Both the position numbers and the translations under genes were made by a program. A stretch of DNA of 30,303 bases from an uncultured Candidatus Bathyarchaeia archaeon (lineage in GTDB: Archaea > Thermoproteota > Bathyarchaeia > Bathyarchaeales > Bathycorpusculaceae): assembly GCA_964450845.1 (NCBI GenBank), contig CAYVGZ010000006.1:1-30303 (forward strand). Direction: 5' to 3'. Shown here one piece after another: positions 23,565 to 30,303 of the stretch. The first letter of the stretch is position 1; the number at the start of each line of letters is the position of its first letter. The notes beneath the pieces are model-generated. The model saw only the letters and a program-made list of their open reading frames with translations. It had not been told where the DNA came from and did no database searches.

Positions 23565-25271
23565 TTATGACTTCTTTATCAACTTCTCGCTTAGGGTGTT
23601 AAGAAATTTATGGTATTTGCCTATTTTTTCGTGGGCCTGTTGCATCGTTATTTTGGAAAACTCGATAATATCGTTTGTTTTGGCTTGTCCAAGTGTGGAA
23701 ACATCAGGAGTTATTATTACGGCGATTTTTGGGTAACCACCTGCTGTCTGAGCGTCCCGCATTATCATTATTGGTTTTCCATTTTTTGGAATTTGAACGG
23801 CACCTGGTAATAGGGCGTCTGAAATAATATCCGCCTTTGCTTTATGCTCTATCGTTGGGCCTTCCAGCCGGTATCCCATTCGATCTGCCTCTAATGTAAC
23901 CTTATATTGGCTTGAGAGAAAAGTGGTTATTCCCTCTTCTGTGAACATGTCAGCTTGTGGTCCCAGTGTCACATGTGCTTTAAACTGCCCTGTGAATTGT
24001 GGCACTAGTTCTTCTGGCATTAAGTATTCAAATTTGAGAAGAGAGACATTGAATCCTCCAATTATATCTTCAGTTTTCAGTTGTCTGCCGTTTATTCCTC
24101 CAAATCCCCCGCGCACGTATGTTGATCTGCTTCCAAGTACTGGCGGAGTATCTACTCCTCCTCTTATTGCGAGGTATGCTCGGCATCCACTTTCCATTTT
24201 TCCAAAAGAGACTACAGCGCCTTCTTGTACTTCTAATGTTTGCCACATAGGGACATGTTGATCATTAATTTTTGGGGAAGTGGCTCCTCCAGTTATGGCT
24301 ATCTGTGTTTTTGTCAAGGCTTGGAGTTCTGGACCGATTAGGGTTGTTTCTAGACATGCGTCATCTGGATTGTTTGCAACTAAGAGGTTTGCTGCAACTA
24401 GGGAGAATGTGTCCATTGTACCAGAAATTGGGACTCCATATTTGAGATAGCCATATCTCCCTAGGTCTTGGACGGTCGTGAAAAACCCGGGTTTTAGCAC
24501 TTGAAAAACTTTTATTCCCTTTTTCTTCTTCGGAAAGTGGCTTGCAGGTTGCTTTTGAGTGGTCTTTTCAGAGATGCCAAACTCTTTTTCTGAGATTGGT
24601 TTAAATTTGACAATGTCTCCGAGTTGCAGAAGTGCTGGTGGTTGCTGCAGCGGATTAAACAATCTTAATGGCGTTCTGCCTATTATTCGCCATCCGCCAG
24701 GTGCTTCACACGGATATATGCCCGTCTGTTTTTCCGCTATGCCGACCGAGCCTGCTGGCACTTTCAGTCTCGGAGTTTCAAGCCTTGGCGTTGCGATTTC
24801 GTCCGAGACCTCTCCTAGGTAAGGAAAGCCAGCAACAAATCCTACCATGTAAACCCTATATTCTCTGCCAGAATGTATCTTAACAACCTGCTCTTCAGTT
24901 GACCCGTGAAATCTGGCAACATCAGCGAGGTCTGGTCCATACTCTCCTCCATAAACAACTGGAATGATTGTTTTTCTGCCAACTTTTTCCTTTTTTCGCT
25001 CTTCCATCGTTTTTTCAACATCTTTTATGCTGAAAACGAGGTGTTCATAGCTTGTTTTTGAAGCGTTATATCTGACAAGTAATGAGCGATAGGTCGGAAC
25101 GAGTTCTTCGACTCCTCGAATTTTAGCGCCTATAATTGCTTCGCTTAAAGCGATAACTTTGCGGTTCACTTTCAAATTTATTACATTTCCAAATTCGATT
25201 AGCAGACCGTTGTCGCCGAAAGGCATGTATCGCGCGGCTGTATAGATTCCTGTGCTCATAATGTACTCCAT
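23565..25271 (-). CDS. pxpBC: 5-oxoprolinase subunits B and C fused (allophanate hydrolase subunit 1+2 family)
   Basis: N-half: ELVPTYRSLLV, IPVVYGGEYGPDL, GFVAGFPYLG, VPAGSVGIA, PGGWRIIGRTP. C-half: TTVQDLGRYG, GSRSTY, DRMGYRLEG, DAQTAGGYPKI. Confidence 0.93.
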   Translation of the reverse strand: MEYIMSTGIYTAARYMPFGDNGLLIEFGNVINLKVNRKVIALSEAIIGAKIRGVEELVPTYRSLLVRYNASKTSYEHLVFSIKDVEKTMEERKKEKVGRKTIIPVVYGGEYGPDLADVARFHGSTEEQVVKIHSGREYRVYMVGFVAGFPYLGEVSDEIATPRLETPRLKVPAGSVGIAEKQTGIYPCEAPGGWRIIGRTPLRLFNPLQQPPALLQLGDIVKFKPISEKEFGISEKTTQKQPASHFPKKKKGIKVFQVLKPGFFTTVQDLGRYGYLKYGVPISGTMDTFSLVAANLLVANNPDDACLETTLIGPELQALTKTQIAITGGATSPKINDQHVPMWQTLEVQEGAVVSFGKMESGCRAYLAIRGGVDTPPVLGSRSTYVRGGFGGINGRQLKTEDIIGGFNVSLLKFEYLMPEELVPQFTGQFKAHVTLGPQADMFTEEGITTFLSSQYKVTLEADRMGYRLEGPTIEHKAKADIISDALLPGAVQIPKNGKPIMIMRDAQTAGGYPKIAVIITPDVSTLGQAKTNDIIEFSKITMQQAHEKIGKYHKFLNTLSEKLIKKS

Positions 25272-25280
25272 AAAAATCGT

Positions 25281-26054
25281 TTAAATGAAGCTACCTACGG
25301 GTTTGACTTCGATGCCAGCTCTTATCAACCCTTTTCTTATTGTTTCTGCGAGTTCTAGAGCTACAGGAGTGTCACCATGCACACAGACTGTATGCACCCT
25401 GCCTACGTCTAAAACTTCACCATTAGCGGCTGCAACTGTTCCATCTTCAACAGCTTTGACAACCCGTTCAACAACCTTTTTTGGATTTTGAATTATAGCA
25501 TTCGATTGTTTTCTTGAAACAAGACTGCCGTCTGGATTGTAGGCTCTGTCGGCGAAAAATTCATGTGCCACGCGTAACCGATTTTTGGCGGCGGCTTCTG
25601 ATAAAGTGGAATTCGGAGGCGCAAAAACTATCAGGTCAGTGTCTAGTGCTTTTATGGCTTCTATTATTGCGTTCGAGAGCTTTTCGTCTTTTGCTGCCAT
25701 GTTGTAAAGCGCTCCGTGAGGTTTTACGTGTTGGAGATCGAGATTAGCTGCTTTTGCAAATCCTTGGAGGGCGCTTACTTGATAGAGCGTGTAATTTTTT
25801 GCTTCTTCCGAAGTCAGTTGCATTTCTCTTCTTCCAAAACCCATAATGTCCGGGTAACCCGGATGTGCTCCCACGGCAACTCCGTGTTTTTTGGCAATGT
25901 CAATCGTATGCGCTATTGTCGTGGGGTCTCCGGCGTGGAATCCGCAGGCGATGTTCGCTGAAGTTATGTGGGGCATTATTTTCTCGTCGTTTCCAATCTT
26001 GAATACTCCGTAGCTTTCGCCTAAATCACAGTTTATGTCGATTTTACGCTTCAA
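25281..26054 (-). CDS. pxpA: 5-oxoprolinase subunit A (LamB/YcsF family)
   Basis: Motifs IDINCDLGESYG, SANIACGFHAGDP, GAHPGYPD, HVKPHGALYN, EFFADRAY and TVCVHGDTP. Confidence 0.96.
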   Translation of the reverse strand: MKRKIDINCDLGESYGVFKIGNDEKIMPHITSANIACGFHAGDPTTIAHTIDIAKKHGVAVGAHPGYPDIMGFGRREMQLTSEEAKNYTLYQVSALQGFAKAANLDLQHVKPHGALYNMAAKDEKLSNAIIEAIKALDTDLIVFAPPNSTLSEAAAKNRLRVAHEFFADRAYNPDGSLVSRKQSNAIIQNPKKVVERVVKAVEDGTVAAANGEVLDVGRVHTVCVHGDTPVALELAETIRKGLIRAGIEVKPVGSFI

Positions 26055-26057
26055 CTA

Positions 26058-27128
26058 TTATCTCCTTAAACGAGAATGTGGTTTTAGGCTGAAATATTTT
26101 CTCATGTCACATAAGGCAGCGGATGGGACTGACAAATCCTTCATTGTAAGCAGGCCTGACGGCGCGTTGATGACTTTTGGAATTGAGTTAACCACCATTG
26201 CCACTGTGCTTATATCGCCGTGTACACATGGCTGAATCTTCTGCTTGACGTTTGGAACGCCATAAATTGTTACAGCATCATACTCTTCCTCAGCGCCTAT
26301 GTAGGCTTGAAAATCAAGAACTATAATCTCTCTGTTCTTCATTACACCTCTTGCTTTTTGCCTCAAACCCGATGCGTCCCCAGCTCTAACTTTTATGTCC
26401 ATGCTTTCAACAGGTTTTTTGGCAATTACGGGTTCAACGGGTTCGACCGATATCTTGTCAAGTTTCCATGCCAAGGCATCAGCAATCATAGCGATAGATT
26501 GTTCAAGTCCAACATGTCCTGTAATCTGTTTATTTTCGATTTTCCTGCGAAATTCTTCGACCGTTAAACCTGCGCCTATCTTCTTTTGAAAGGGTAATCG
26601 CCTTGTTGCAGCGTTCATGACTCTGACTGCTTTGATTTTCTCTATTTTTTGGCAGACAGCAGTAAGCGTTATTACAAGTGTGTCCATTAGAAAGCCTGGA
26701 TTTATGCCTGTGCCTAAAACTGTTGCGTTGTGTTTTTTAGCGAGTGTGTCTAGTTTTTTTGCAATTTCGTTTTCAGTACAGTAGGGGTAGCTTAGTTCTT
26801 CACATGTAGATATTACTTTGATGCCATGTTTTATGATTGAGGCTATTTGCGGAAATGTGTCCTTAAGGAAGGATGAGGTTGCGTGTATAGCAATGTCTGC
26901 CTTGGCTTTAGAAAACAACGCATCAGCATCAGCCGAAATTTTTATTCCAAGTTTTTTCTTTAGACCTAGAATTTCGCCTAAATCCTTGCCGATTTTGTCT
27001 TTGGCTATGTCAACAGCTCCTATTATTTCTAATCCTTCTTTTTCTAGCAAAAACTTTGCAATTAGGCTGCCAACAGCACCAACTCCATATAAAGCAACTC
27101 TTAGCTTTCTCATTTTTGCCTTCCTCAA
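26058..27128 (-). CDS. NAD(P)-dependent amine dehydrogenase, 2,4-diaminopentanoate dehydrogenase (Ord)-like
   Basis: Rossmann motif YGVGAVG, plus ISTCEELSYP, LGTGINPGFLMD, TGHVGLEQS and GDISTVAMVVNSIP...GLLTMKDL. Start may be ATG 27113. Confidence 0.82.
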   Translation of the reverse strand: MRKAKMRKLRVALYGVGAVGSLIAKFLLEKEGLEIIGAVDIAKDKIGKDLGEILGLKKKLGIKISADADALFSKAKADIAIHATSSFLKDTFPQIASIIKHGIKVISTCEELSYPYCTENEIAKKLDTLAKKHNATVLGTGINPGFLMDTLVITLTAVCQKIEKIKAVRVMNAATRRLPFQKKIGAGLTVEEFRRKIENKQITGHVGLEQSIAMIADALAWKLDKISVEPVEPVIAKKPVESMDIKVRAGDASGLRQKARGVMKNREIIVLDFQAYIGAEEEYDAVTIYGVPNVKQKIQPCVHGDISTVAMVVNSIPKVINAPSGLLTMKDLSVPSAALCDMRKYFSLKPHSRLRR

Positions 27129-27217
27129 TGTTCACTTTTTAGTATGTCCAACTCTATAAAAATGTGTTCGCAAATATCACGTGTTATGTATGATTGTTTA
27201 AAACCTTTACGTTTGTA

Positions 27218-27228
27218 AACCTTTATAT
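27218..27228 (+). promoter_or_regulatory. TATA-like promoter upstream of the hdr-associated operon
   Basis: AAACC-TTTATA about 40 nt upstream of TTG 27265, preceded by a near-identical AAACCTTTAC at 27201-27210. Confidence 0.4.
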
Positions 27229-27264
27229 CTTTGGGAAACCCCAAAATTAGAGAGGACCCAAAAC

Positions 27265-28701
27265 TTGGAAACGCCAAAGACCATAATCTCCAACGAAGAT
27301 ATCAAAAGGCTTTTAGATGTTGAAAAACTCAAATACTGCTTTGAATGCGGCATTTGCACAGCCAGCTGTTCAATGGCAGAATTGCTTGGAAAAGATTACA
27401 ATCCAAGGAGCCTTCTAGAAAAAATTTTCCTAAAGCCTGAAGAGACTTTGAATTCTGATGAGCCTTGGCTTTGCGCTTGGTGCTACAGTTGCTACAGACA
27501 TTGTCCTCAAGCTCTAAGATTACCTGAAATATTTCTATTCATACGAACAACTGCCATAAAAAATGGGTACACAGAGCCAGTTGAAAAAGCCCTTAAAAAA
27601 ATCGTGGAAAACATTCCTTTGCCACTTATAACGACTCTAGTTTGTTTTCATCCGGAACGCGCTGGATTAGATAGAGATAAAATTTTGGAAAAAACTGAAC
27701 AGATGCAAATAGAATGTTTAAAGAAGGAAAGAAGGAAAAAAGCCTCCAAAGGCTCTGAAAAAAAGATTGCAGTTATAGGCTCTGGACCTGCTGGGCTTAC
27801 AGTCGCCTACGAGCTAGCTCGGAAAGGACATAAAGTTACAATTTTTGAGTCTCTTCCGGAACCGGGCGGAATGTTAAGAAAATGTTTACCAGAATATCGC
27901 CTACCGAAAGAGGTTTTAGCAAAAGAAGTTCAGTTCATAAAAGACTTAGGTGTAGAAATGAAAACTGATGTAACAGTTGGAAAAGACTTGAATTTTGACG
28001 ATTTATTGAAGGAGGGGTTTAAAGCCATTTTTGTCGGTTCAGGCGCTCATAAAAGCCAAAAGTTGAAAATTGAAGGTGGAAATTTGAAAGGCGTGATTCA
28101 CGCACTTGACTTTTTATGGAGCGTTAATTGTGGGGAAAAAGTGGAAATTGGAAGAAACGTTGTTGTGATTGGCGGCGGCAACGTTGCCATAGATGCTGCG
28201 AGAACTGCTTTGAGACTTGGGGCAAACGAAGCAGCCATATTGTATCGTAGGTCGAGGGAGGAAATGCCTGCAAATCCATGGGAGGTTAAAGAGGCGGAGA
28301 ATGAAGGGGTAAAAATCGAGTTTTTGGTGGCGCCTAAAAAAATTCTGGGAGAAAATGGAAGGGTTTCAGCTGTTGAGTGTGTTCGCATGCAATTAGGCGA
28401 ACCAGACGAGTCTGGAAGAAGAAAACCAATGCCAATAGAAGGTTCCGAATTTACGCGCGAAACAAATATAGTGATTCTGGCAATAGGTGAAGCCCCAGAC
28501 TTAGAGTTTTTGCCGAAAGAAGTAGACCTGAGTGAAGGTGGCACAGTTTGGGTTAACCCAATAACTATGGAAACAAGCTTACAAGGCGTTTTTGCGGGTG
28601 GAGATGCTGTGACAGGACCAGCGAGCGTGATTGAAGCAATCCGTGCTGGAAAATGTGCTGCAGAGTCAATTGAAAATTACTTGAAATCACTAGGAGGTTA
28701 A
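27265..28701 (+). CDS. Fusion protein: HdrC-like 2x[4Fe-4S] domain plus GltD/SudA/NfnB-like FAD/NAD(P)H oxidoreductase domain
   Basis: C25xxCxxCxxxC35 followed by YNPR, and W68LC70xxCxxCxxxC80P, as in HdrC. Then IAVIGSGPAGL, GGMLR..LPEYRLP, VIGGGNVAIDAARTALRLG, LYRRSREEMPA and GVFAGGDAVTGP. Confidence 0.9.
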   Translation: METPKTIISNEDIKRLLDVEKLKYCFECGICTASCSMAELLGKDYNPRSLLEKIFLKPEETLNSDEPWLCAWCYSCYRHCPQALRLPEIFLFIRTTAIKNGYTEPVEKALKKIVENIPLPLITTLVCFHPERAGLDRDKILEKTEQMQIECLKKERRKKASKGSEKKIAVIGSGPAGLTVAYELARKGHKVTIFESLPEPGGMLRKCLPEYRLPKEVLAKEVQFIKDLGVEMKTDVTVGKDLNFDDLLKEGFKAIFVGSGAHKSQKLKIEGGNLKGVIHALDFLWSVNCGEKVEIGRNVVVIGGGNVAIDAARTALRLGANEAAILYRRSREEMPANPWEVKEAENEGVKIEFLVAPKKILGENGRVSAVECVRMQLGEPDESGRRKPMPIEGSEFTRETNIVILAIGEAPDLEFLPKEVDLSEGGTVWVNPITMETSLQGVFAGGDAVTGPASVIEAIRAGKCAAESIENYLKSLGG

Positions 28702-28705
28702 TATA

Positions 28706-30303
28706 GTGGCTGAAAAGGAAAAGTCGGGCTCTAAGGAAGGCGGCGGAGAAATCCGTATTGGAGTTTATGTTTGCCACTGTGGCTTAAACATTGCAGGTTC
28801 TGTGGATTGTGAAGAAGTGGCAAAATTTGCTGGAACACTTCCACACGTTGTTTTAGCCCAAGACAATCGATACACATGTTCAGACCAAGGACAAGAACTA
28901 ATAAAAAAAGACATAAAAGAACACAACCTCAACCGCGTCGTTGTAGCATCCTGTTCGCCACGCCTTCACGAACCAACATTCAGAAAGACATGCGAAGACG
29001 CTGGATTAAACAAGTATCTTTTTGAAATGGCTAACATACGCGAACAATGTAGCTGGGTCCACTTACATGACCGAGAGGCGGCTACGGAAAAGGTGAAAGA
29101 CCTTGTGAAAATAGCTGTAGCCAAAGCTGCTTTGCTTCAACCAGCAGAAGAAATTGAAGTGCCGATAACCCGAAAAGCATTAGTCATAGGAGGCGGAGTG
29201 GCAGGCATTCAAGCCGCTTTGGACTTGGCTGACACTGGCTATAAAGTCTATTTAGTGGAGAAAGAACCAAGCATCGGCGGAATGATGGCGCGAATAGACA
29301 AAACTTTCCCAACAATGGACTGTTCAATATGCATTCTTGCACCTAAAATGTCTGACGTTGGGCATCATCCAAACATCGAGTTGCTGGCTAATAGCGAAGT
29401 TGCGGATGTGAAAGGATACATTGGCAACTTTCATGTTAAAGTGCTGAAAAAACCACGGTACGTCAAAAAAGACTGCTCGGCTTGTGATGAATGTTCAAAA
29501 GTCTGTCCAGTAATTGCTCCAAACGAATTCGACGCGGGTTTAGCCTTAAGACACGCTATTTACACGCCTTTTGCACAAGCTGTTCCATCGACATACATAA
29601 TTGACATGAACATATGCCTCAACAAAGACGGCGTAATCGTCTGCGACAAGTGCATCAAAGCGTGTGAGAGGCAAGCCATAAACTTCGAAATGAAACCAGA
29701 AACCGCAGAATTTGATGTGGGAACAATAATAGTGGCAACAGGCGCAGACGTATTTGATCCATCAACATTGCCAAATTATGGGTATGGCAAATATTCAAAC
29801 GTAATAACCTCACTTGAATTTGAAAGATTAATCAACGCAGGTGGTCCTTCAGGTGGGCACCTAATAAGACCTAGTGACATGCAGATTCCTAAACGGGTTG
29901 CTTTCGTTCAGTGTGTGGGTTCTCGTTCCGACAGAACTGGAAGATTATATTGTAGTAATGTTTGCTGCATGAACACGATTAAAGATAGCCTACTAATTAA
30001 GGAACATTGGCCTGAAACCGAAATCTATGTTTTCTATGTTGATATACGAGCGTATGGAAAAGGTTTTGAAGACCTCTATAAACGAGCGAGAAAAGAAGGT
30101 GTCGTGTTTATACGGGGTCTTCCAGCCGAGATAATAGAAAACAGAAAAACCCAGGACCTATGGCTTATTGGAGAAAACACCCTGCAAAAAGAACTGTATA
30201 AGATAAATGTTGACATGGCAATCCTTTCTATAGGCTTAGAGCCTAGAAAAGACAGCGAAATAATACAACGCTTGTTAACACTTTCCAGAACCCAAGACGG
30301 ATT
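28706..30303 (+). CDS. hdrA: Heterodisulfide reductase subunit A; 3'-partial, absent from the ORF track
   Basis: Translated by hand from GTG 28706 after AGGAGGT and open to the window end. Motifs RIGVYVCHCG, VVVASCSPRLHEPTF, NIREQCSWVH, ALVIGGGVAG, KTFPTMDCSICIL, two ferredoxin-type Cys clusters, SLEFERL, FVQCVGSR and YCSNVCCMNTIK. Confidence 0.96.
   Translation, partial: MAEKEKSGSKEGGGEIRIGVYVCHCGLNIAGSVDCEEVAKFAGTLPHVVLAQDNRYTCSDQGQELIKKDIKEHNLNRVVVASCSPRLHEPTFRKTCEDAGLNKYLFEMANIREQCSWVHLHDREAATEKVKDLVKIAVAKAALLQPAEEIEVPITRKALVIGGGVAGIQAALDLADTGYKVYLVEKEPSIGGMMARIDKTFPTMDCSICILAPKMSDVGHHPNIELLANSEVADVKGYIGNFHVKVLKKPRYVKKDCSACDECSKVCPVIAPNEFDAGLALRHAIYTPFAQAVPSTYIIDMNICLNKDGVIVCDKCIKACERQAINFEMKPETAEFDVGTIIVATGADVFDPSTLPNYGYGKYSNVITSLEFERLINAGGPSGGHLIRPSDMQIPKRVAFVQCVGSRSDRTGRLYCSNVCCMNTIKDSLLIKEHWPETEIYVFYVDIRAYGKGFEDLYKRARKEGVVFIRGLPAEIIENRKTQDLWLIGENTLQKELYKINVDMAILSIGLEPRKDSEIIQRLLTLSRTQDG

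Follow-up and report, generated by a model that had tools for sequence, protein, structure and literature searches.

The locus described here raises the question of where an HdrA protein might send its electrons when no HdrB is encoded beside it. The window analysed, 30,303 nucleotides from an uncultured Candidatus Bathyarchaeia archaeon (GenBank assembly GCA_964450845.1), is the whole of contig CAYVGZ010000006.1 (C6) in a genome of 1.64 Mb on 120 contigs that is 93% complete, and the close homologues of its proteins are labelled Bathyarchaeia. Near its end lies a gene for a 478-aa protein, here called the fusion protein, in which an HdrC-like N-terminus is joined to a flavoprotein body of the NfnB/GltD type. 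Its stop codon precedes the start of hdrA by 4 nt; both reading frames and the gap are as given in an earlier note made from the sequence alone. We propose that the two proteins form an HdrB-less HdrA module whose HdrC arm ends at NADP(H) and whose low-potential arm leads into a 2-oxoglutarate:ferredoxin oxidoreductase (OGOR), the whole working by electron bifurcation or confurcation. We give this reading about an even chance; its parts differ in strength and are taken in turn.

The hdrA gene runs off the end of the window. Positions 30249-30303 are identical to positions 1-55 of contig C16, the overlap lies inside hdrA and the reading frame continues through it. The junction is an assembly break at k-mer length and no biological end. 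Joined across both contigs, hdrA has 813 codons, with the last 298 residues on C16, and its relatives measure 812-814 aa. The protein carries EFER at residues 371-374 (29816-29827) and CCMNTIK at residues 420-426 (29963-29983); an alignment of 20 HdrA sequences shows no variation in EFER, in the lysine of CCMxxxK or in any cluster cysteine. The best NCBIfam match of the window fragment is HdrA2 (NF040770, 854 bits), to which the C16 fragment adds 424 bits. A full-length relative (locus L009), 94% identical to the window part, scores 1265 bits against a cut-off of 1100 and covers profile positions 1-777. The C-terminal part on C16 contains a second ferredoxin domain and a VhuD/MvhD domain (1.5e-34). 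By these family matches, HdrA is of the HdrA2 type with a fused C-terminal MvhD domain. The earlier description of a canonical hdrA thus holds for the retained EFER and CCMxxxK motifs and has to be revised for the type of protein.

Two nucleotides behind hdrA on C16 follows korD, which encodes a 92-aa two-cluster protein, and then korA, korB and korG; after the gaps of 4 nt and 2 nt, three gene overlaps complete the operon. The best match of KorD is OGOR_delta, at 69.5 bits under the cut-off of 125. The alpha and gamma subunits score above their cut-offs (PRK08659, 587 against 411 bits; PRK08537, 252 against 235 bits), and the beta subunit stays under its own (PRK09628, 270 against 364 bits). 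To judge from these matches, korDABG probably encodes a 2-oxoglutarate-type enzyme. As korDABG continues the operon, the low-potential partner of the module is probably the OGOR, instead of or besides free ferredoxin. The MvhD fusion and korDABG had been missed before because they lie beyond the contig end.

HdrB itself is missing from this setting. A search of the whole genome for its CCG domain found no such gene on C6 or C16, and none occurs in the related operons inspected. The absence of hdrB upstream, pointed out earlier, therefore holds and extends to the downstream side, where hdrA is followed by korDABG rather than by an hdrBC pair.

The N-terminal domain of the fusion protein contains the motif CxxCxxCxxxC twice (residues 25-35 and 70-80), and its eight cluster cysteines are invariant or nearly so in 20 aligned homologues. 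Pfam recognizes a Fer4_8/Fer4_17 dicluster domain at residues 22-84, and the NCBIfam HdrC models align to residues 11-114 (1e-16 to 7e-14). The scores remain below the family cut-offs, with 61 bits against 160 for TIGR03290, of which only profile positions 2-92 of 144 are covered, and 52 bits against 350 for NF041779. When residues 1-170 were compared with PDB sequences, the top five were HdrC chains, from 5odc_C (1.8e-16) to 7bkb_C (6e-10), followed by FwdG (5e-4) and then by SdhB-type proteins (about 0.3). A fold search of 48,161 PDB representatives with an AlphaFold model of residues 1-165 (pLDDT 88) also ranked HdrC first. HdrC 7bkb_C was the best match (Z 9.7, root-mean-square deviation (rmsd) 2.5 Å, 93 residues aligned) and HdrC 5odc_C the second (Z 9.3, rmsd 3.9 Å, 97 residues aligned), with SdhB/FrdB (Z about 6) and the N-terminal domains of GltD/NfnB (Z 5.4-5.6) being weaker. 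In a scan of 301 genomes of the class, free-standing proteins (160-250 aa) with 43-48% identity to the domain came to light; all four that were inspected are products of a real hdrC with hdrB directly after it. Since HdrC comes out best in profile, PDB sequence and fold searches and real hdrC genes are among the relatives, these comparisons identify the N-terminus as HdrC by descent and not as a generic ferredoxin, in line with the earlier assignment. The closest free-standing relatives are the HdrC proteins of loci L115-L118 in other genomes of the class, where divergent hdrCB operon pairs occur with tandem HdrA-like genes.

The remainder of the protein is an NfnB/GltD-type flavoprotein. Pfam places Pyr_redox_2 at residues 167-462 (2e-32). 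The motifs named earlier are all found, namely EYRLP (residues 210-214) and YRRS (residues 327-330) as well as EFER and CCMxxxK in HdrA, with one correction. The first of two supposed GxGxxG motifs is indeed GSGPAG (residues 172-177), and the second is GGGNVA, a GxGxxA motif, which is the form at the equivalent position in the aligned NfnB-type chain. YRRS after the GxGxxA strand suggests NADPH as the ligand; in some distant family members acidic residues take its place. A model of the whole fusion (pLDDT 89, pTM 0.90) superposes on Pyrococcus NfnB (5jca_L) with Z 33.6 and rmsd 3.2 Å, 392 residues between 10 and 475 being aligned at 43% identity. Because the superposition spans nearly the entire chain, the HdrC-type domain is predicted to occupy the position of NfnB's own cluster domain. 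The latter domain, Pfam Fer4_20 of GltD, NfnB and DPD, was undetected in the fusion and detected in canonical relatives and paralogues. Where the canonical relative P0270 still has a cysteine-rich motif in the alignment, the fusion retains a degenerate remnant (Table 1). GltD/NfnB-type NCBIfam models accordingly align only from about residue 71 onward, all under cut-off (PRK12771, 371 against 516 bits; gltA TIGR01316, 317 against 472 bits).

No NfnA or GltB partner is encoded at the locus; the NfnA-like gene of this genome is on contig C45, beside a canonical NfnB. A credible GltB was not found in the genome at its 93% completeness, the best Glu_synthase match having 34 bits. A small subunit of glutamate synthase was rejected on this result and on the missing GltD cluster domain. 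Five larger proteins (P0190, P0191, P0193, P0223 and P0238) were considered as further carriers of the HdrC and GltD combination and rejected, as they have the canonical Fer4_20.

Structure prediction supports docking of the HdrC-like domain on HdrA. Fusion residues 1-165 were modelled together with the HdrA of L009 (20-row alignment), the window hdrA being split over contigs. The interface score ipSAE was 0.71 (0.72, 0.70 and 0.71 in the individual runs), and the best of three controls reached 0.00; in a benchmark, 58 of 80 solved complexes and 2 of 110 mismatched pairs attained that mark. The runs had at least 93% of contacts in common, with a partner pLDDT of at least 77. In the model, residues 21-49 and 79-83 of the fusion face HdrA residues 404-412, 446-447, 472-476 and 489-498. 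The fusion side corresponds to the surroundings of the first cluster (Cys25/28/31/80), and the HdrA segments carry or flank the invariant Cys404/417/421/422.

The pairing is also conserved. A scan with one genome per species yielded 148 relatives of the fusion and 80 loci were kept, nearly all from Bathyarchaeia; the exceptions are one locus with the label Atabeyarchaeia, another with the label Hadarchaeota, and two contigs assigned to bacterial bins. In 76 of 82 loci, including three in which the genes overlap, the fusion gene has hdrA as its immediate downstream neighbour, and the arrangement is therefore not due to chance. Of 60 loci with enough flanking sequence, 53 had all of korDABG next, in the same orientation and with the six-gene order kept. 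Across loci, HdrA is 71-100% and the fusion 48-91% identical. The module has a patchy distribution in the class: a full-length fusion occurs in about 35 of the 301 sampled genomes, mostly in four or five families. Apparent 2-kb matches that might have indicated an insertion were rejected, as the GltD query also aligned to the FAD domain of the adjacent HdrA. The TTG start of the fusion gene is shared with a 90%-identical relative, and more distant ones have ATG.

Loci that deviate from this order show what else the module is associated with. The Hadarchaeota-labelled locus and another genome of that group share the order mtd-ftr-fusion-hdrA-fwdDB-fwdA-fwdC, and all of these C1 genes score above NCBIfam cut-offs. 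One Bathyarchaeon has the module together with a small ferredoxin inside an operon for carbon monoxide dehydrogenase/acetyl-CoA synthase (CODH/ACS), arranged as cdhA fragment-cdhB-fusion-hdrA-ferredoxin-cdhC. Six loci have a 322-aa polyferredoxin in place of kor, and one of them (L097) adds a gene of the aldehyde:ferredoxin oxidoreductase (AOR) family and a small Fe-S subunit. The enzymes found beside the module (OGOR, Fwd, CODH/ACS and AOR) all work near -500 mV and depend on ferredoxin. KorD travels with HdrA: kor is absent from L102 and the small ferredoxin still follows hdrA, korABG is inverted in L074 and korD remains behind hdrA, and the second Kor-type enzyme of our genome, on contig C20, has no delta subunit. 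In L085 (Bathyarchaeota BA2), the place of HdrA2 and kor behind the fusion gene is taken by HdrA-like genes (443 and 577 aa) and an open reading frame of 1004 aa.

Taken with the absence of an hdrBC pair behind hdrA and the HdrC-like character of the N-domain, the predicted HdrA-fusion interface and the neighbourhood search leave the earlier note's interpretation partly supported; a standard hdrBC partner, a missing interface or a better alignment to generic ferredoxins, any of which it had named as counting against itself, was not what we found. Electron bifurcation, the presence of two bifurcating flavins and the use of free ferredoxin as a substrate are proposals drawn from the sequence.

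Table 1. Coordinates of the features at the fusion-hdrA locus (window positions unless a contig is named)
Feature	Position	Strand	Remarks
Fusion gene, HdrC-like::NfnB/GltD-like flavoprotein, 478 aa	27265..28701	+	TTG start
HdrC-type two-[4Fe-4S] domain (predicted), aa 19-114	27319..27606	+	Cys motifs 27337-27369 and 27472-27504
Degenerate GltD/NfnB cluster-motif remnant, IPLPL...VCFHPER	27613..27660	+	Cys127 sole Cys left
FAD and NADPH dinucleotide sites (predicted): GSGPAG 27778-27795, GGGNVA 28171-28188, YRRS 28243-28254	27778..28254	+	aligned with NfnB-type chain motifs
GGAGGT, ribosome-binding-like site for hdrA	28693..28698	+	within last codons of fusion gene
hdrA 5' part, HdrA2-type, 532 codons	28706..30303	+	GTG start, open at contig end
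hdrA continuation, MvhD domain, then korD, korA, korB, korG	contig C16 56-899 for hdrA		frame continued across 55-nt overlap
Intergenic region, 136 nt, A/T-rich TATA-like stretches	27129..27264		between fusion gene and divergent Ord-like dehydrogenase gene

The proposed mechanism takes the methanogen heterodisulfide reductase (Hdr) as its template. There, MvhD/VhuD brings electrons to the FAD of HdrA, the clusters of HdrA and HdrC carry the high-potential electron to HdrB, and the low-potential electron passes through the inserted ferredoxin domain and polyferredoxins directly to Fwd (PMC13518236). The potentials are -281 mV for the heterodisulfide CoM-S-S-CoB and about -500 mV for the polyferredoxin (PMC13518236). 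In the Bathyarchaeia operon, the fusion and HdrA-MvhD would constitute a two-subunit, HdrB-less redox module in which the HdrC-type domain docks at the site that HdrC uses in methanogens. The HdrC arm would pass electrons on to the NfnB-like part of the same protein, where an FAD/NADP(H) site would replace HdrB and the heterodisulfide. A second arm would lead from HdrA's inserted ferredoxin domain through KorD to KorABG. The third arm, the [2Fe-2S] domain of the fused MvhD, would be the entry or exit for a mid-potential partner encoded outside the operon, for which an orphan MvhAG-type hydrogenase on contig C49 and free ferredoxin are candidates. We infer the wiring to Kor, the third partner, the bifurcation and the physiological direction from this analogy.

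NADP+ has a potential of -320 mV and H2/H+ one of -414 mV. The step from CoM-S-S-CoB (-281 mV) to NADP+ as acceptor would thus be a modest one. Averaging -320 and about -500 mV gives a value near H2/H+ and ferredoxin, so that a reversible reaction, in which a donor near -410 mV (H2 or ferredoxin), NADP+, succinyl-CoA and CO2 are converted to NADPH and 2-oxoglutarate, appears thermodynamically reasonable. F420H2, the donor of HdrA2 in Methanosarcina acetivorans, is unlikely as the third substrate: it would be energetically too weak, and the Fo-synthase gene cofH was not found in the 93% complete genome, where two FrhB-like genes are present.

Several points weigh against this mechanism. The operon encodes no third partner, and an enzyme with two terminals needs no bifurcation. 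The hydrogenase on C49 is a candidate input module for HdrA-MvhD fusions and only that. The docking score may echo the solved HdrA-HdrC structures and would then attest likeness, which is no proof of binding; the model was built with author-made alignments and with the 94%-identical HdrA of L009. Finally, the direction is ambiguous between fixation and catabolism. That no citrate synthase was found in the genome (93% complete), together with the variants beside Fwd and CODH/ACS, favours CO2 fixation and reductive synthesis of 2-oxoglutarate. The divergent Ord-like and 5-oxoprolinase genes upstream and two glutamate dehydrogenases favour catabolism of the glutamate family, in which NADPH and electrons from Kor would be confurcated to H2 or ferredoxin. 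Besides the two glutamate dehydrogenases, the genome encodes SucC.

Among the alternatives, the one that survives best is a stand-alone ferredoxin:NADP(H) module, soluble and possibly Nfn-like with a further substrate, which we consider improbable though worth serious attention. Here, no supercomplex would exist and kor would merely be co-transcribed, because Kor makes or uses the ferredoxin. Some loci do have the two-gene module but no kor, its neighbours being other enzymes that depend on ferredoxin or a polyferredoxin alone, and HdrA2 of Methanosarcina uses free ferredoxin (PMC5296606). This explanation is harder to reconcile with the tight packing of the genes and an order kept in those 53 of 60 loci, and with a small ferredoxin that remains attached to hdrA. 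Moreover, the genome already has a canonical NfnAB, and the Hdr of methanogens is physically wired to Fwd (PMC13518236).

Alternatively, the operon might encode a non-bifurcating 2-oxoglutarate:NADP+ oxidoreductase with electrons running downhill from Kor via KorD, the HdrA clusters and the HdrC-like clusters to FAD and NADP+, HdrA being a wire. The operon shows only two substrates, and 2-oxoacid:ferredoxin oxidoreductases (OFORs) with an NAD-linked flavoprotein exist, such as the NADH-dependent phenylglyoxylate dehydrogenase PadEFGHI (NCBIfam families). Yet HdrA is the most conserved protein of the set and has kept its FAD, its clusters, EFER/CCMxxxK and MvhD, all needless for a wire, and about 180 mV would be lost in such an enzyme. 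PadH, the subunit that binds NAD in phenylglyoxylate:NAD+ oxidoreductase, is presumably GltD-like; the PadH model NF045765 gives no match to the fusion gene, and PadH was dropped as a homologue. We regard the plain oxidoreductase as distinctly unlikely. It is very improbable that HdrA works as a heterodisulfide-type reductase with an HdrBC encoded elsewhere and has no connection with the 478-aa protein, which would be a GltD-type subunit, for instance of glutamate synthase: HdrB-type and HdrC-type genes do occur elsewhere in the genome and M. acetivorans HdrA2 uses an unlinked hdrB2C2 pair (PMC5296606), but every hdrBC pair here adjoins its own hdrA, the best candidate for a GltB is the 34-bit match given above, the adjacency of fusion and HdrA has held while the fusion diverged to 48-91% identity, and the N-domain is HdrC-like and was modelled on HdrA.

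Returning to the HdrB-less bifurcating module, its individual parts have counterparts in described systems. With the MvhAGD-HdrABC and Hdr-Fwd/Fmd assemblies of methanogens (5ODC, 7BKB, 8RVU; PMC13518236) it shares the MvhD input adaptor, an arm formed by a two-cluster domain of the HdrC type, and an HdrA that has FAD, a cluster at the N-terminus and two ferredoxin domains, one inserted and one C-terminal. In those assemblies the low-potential arm is wired through small ferredoxins or polyferredoxins to a CO2-converting enzyme near -500 mV, and the same is proposed here. In contrast to them, the Bathyarchaeia operon lacks HdrB and its non-cubane clusters, and the HdrC arm is predicted to end at an NfnB-type FAD/NADP(H) site. 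Moreover, HdrA and MvhD form a single chain, the operon includes no gene for a hydrogenase or a formate dehydrogenase, and the putative client is a 2-oxoglutarate-type OFOR, or Fwd, CODH/ACS or AOR in other lineages. HdrA2B2C2 of M. acetivorans (PMC5296606) likewise has an HdrA with fused MvhD; its partners are HdrB2C2, CoM-S-S-CoB and the donor F420H2, whereas the HdrA studied here is paired with the HdrC::NfnB fusion in a genome where cofH was not found.

The fusion shares with NfnB (NfnSL/NfnAB; 5JCA, 4YLF) and GltD the fold, the FAD and NADPH motifs and the position of an N-terminal helical two-cluster domain. It differs in that its own cysteine motifs were lost, that an HdrC-type domain stands in their place and that the locus has no NfnA or GltB. 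The literature describes HdrA proteins fused to MvhD (type Ia/HdrA2) and others into which a GltD/NfnB domain is inserted (type III) (PMC12054007, PMC9012536, PMC5296606). In type III, too, a GltD-type NAD(P)H module is coupled to HdrA. There, it splits HdrA's ferredoxin domain on the low-potential arm, and HdrBC has been retained; here, GltD is encoded apart from HdrA and would lie on the HdrC arm, and there is no HdrB.

A more distant parallel is the class II benzoyl-CoA reductase of Geobacter (BamB-I), which reportedly combines HdrA-like and MvhD-like subunits with a pyridine-nucleotide module at the high-potential end and ferredoxin as the proposed donor in a reduction at very low potential. 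It differs from the operon in its NuoEF-like NAD module and its client enzyme, and it is bacterial. The AOR-family and small Fe-S genes of L097 resemble BamBC. A literature search found no description of an HdrC::GltD protein or of an hdrA-kor operon. Thus the operon appears to be a variant of the HdrA bifurcation machines for which no description was found, with a function predicted from its sequence.

The genome offers several other Hdr-related arrangements for comparison. It has four HdrB-type genes, each adjoining a different hdrA, and several HdrC-type genes elsewhere. On contig C29 (L109 2759-7530, minus strand), a type III HdrA of 1127 aa contains a GltD-like insert, and hdrC and hdrB come next. 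Contig C12 (L110) carries two mvh-hdr clusters; in one of them, MvhD is encoded separately from an HdrA of 1005 aa, and a GltD-like protein of 585 aa has a ferredoxin domain of the HdrA type at its C-terminus. The GltD parts on C29 and C12 are 52-54% identical to the fusion (C29: 54%) and the canonical NfnB 41%. This NfnB, with Fer4_20 and cut by the contig end, lies with the NfnA-like gene on C45 (L108), where a 406-aa protein with Fer4 and double MvhD and a TrxR-like flavoprotein come next; further on, a third HdrA-MvhD and a TfrB-like HdrC-HdrB fusion are encoded divergently. On C24 (L107 4041-7410, minus strand), a second gene of the HdrA2 type (809 aa, 53% identical) comes after a 312-aa FwdF-like polyferredoxin and adjoins an amino-acid permease. 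The VhuA/VhuG (MvhAG)-type [NiFe] hydrogenase genes on C49 (L111 1440-3718, minus strand) have no adjacent mvhD or hdr.

Upstream of the fusion gene and divergent from it, positions 23565-27128 (minus strand) of the window contain an Ord-like gene of the 2,4-diaminopentanoate dehydrogenase family, followed by pxpA and a fused pxpBC. The Ord-like gene scores 343 bits against a family cut-off of 400. Of 70 related loci, 44 have retained it on the upstream side of the fusion gene, at a distance of 116-300 nt, and about 30 have retained pxpA/pxpBC.

To our knowledge, HdrA-based bifurcation is known almost only with a heterodisulfide or a DsrC-type disulfide as the high-potential acceptor. The most far-reaching reading of our data, which we put forward tentatively and with less confidence than the module itself, is a portable, thiol-independent HdrA engine terminated by NADP(H) that non-methanogenic archaea plug directly into 2-oxoglutarate synthase, Fwd, CODH/ACS and AOR-type enzymes. 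If this were true, the engine would bifurcate electrons from H2 or ferredoxin and the reduction of NADP+ would pay for carbon fixation; in reverse, fermenting cells could dispose of NADPH as H2 or ferredoxin. It would represent a new class of flavin-based bifurcating supercomplex in sediment archaea, of which Bathyarchaeia are among the most abundant groups, and its six genes would be a compact target for heterologous expression and cryo-EM. It would also show how archaea free of thiol cofactors gain or dispose of electrons near -500 mV, for 2-oxoglutarate synthase and likewise beside Fwd and CODH/ACS, an issue central to how Bathyarchaeia and further uncultured archaea of sediments conserve energy.

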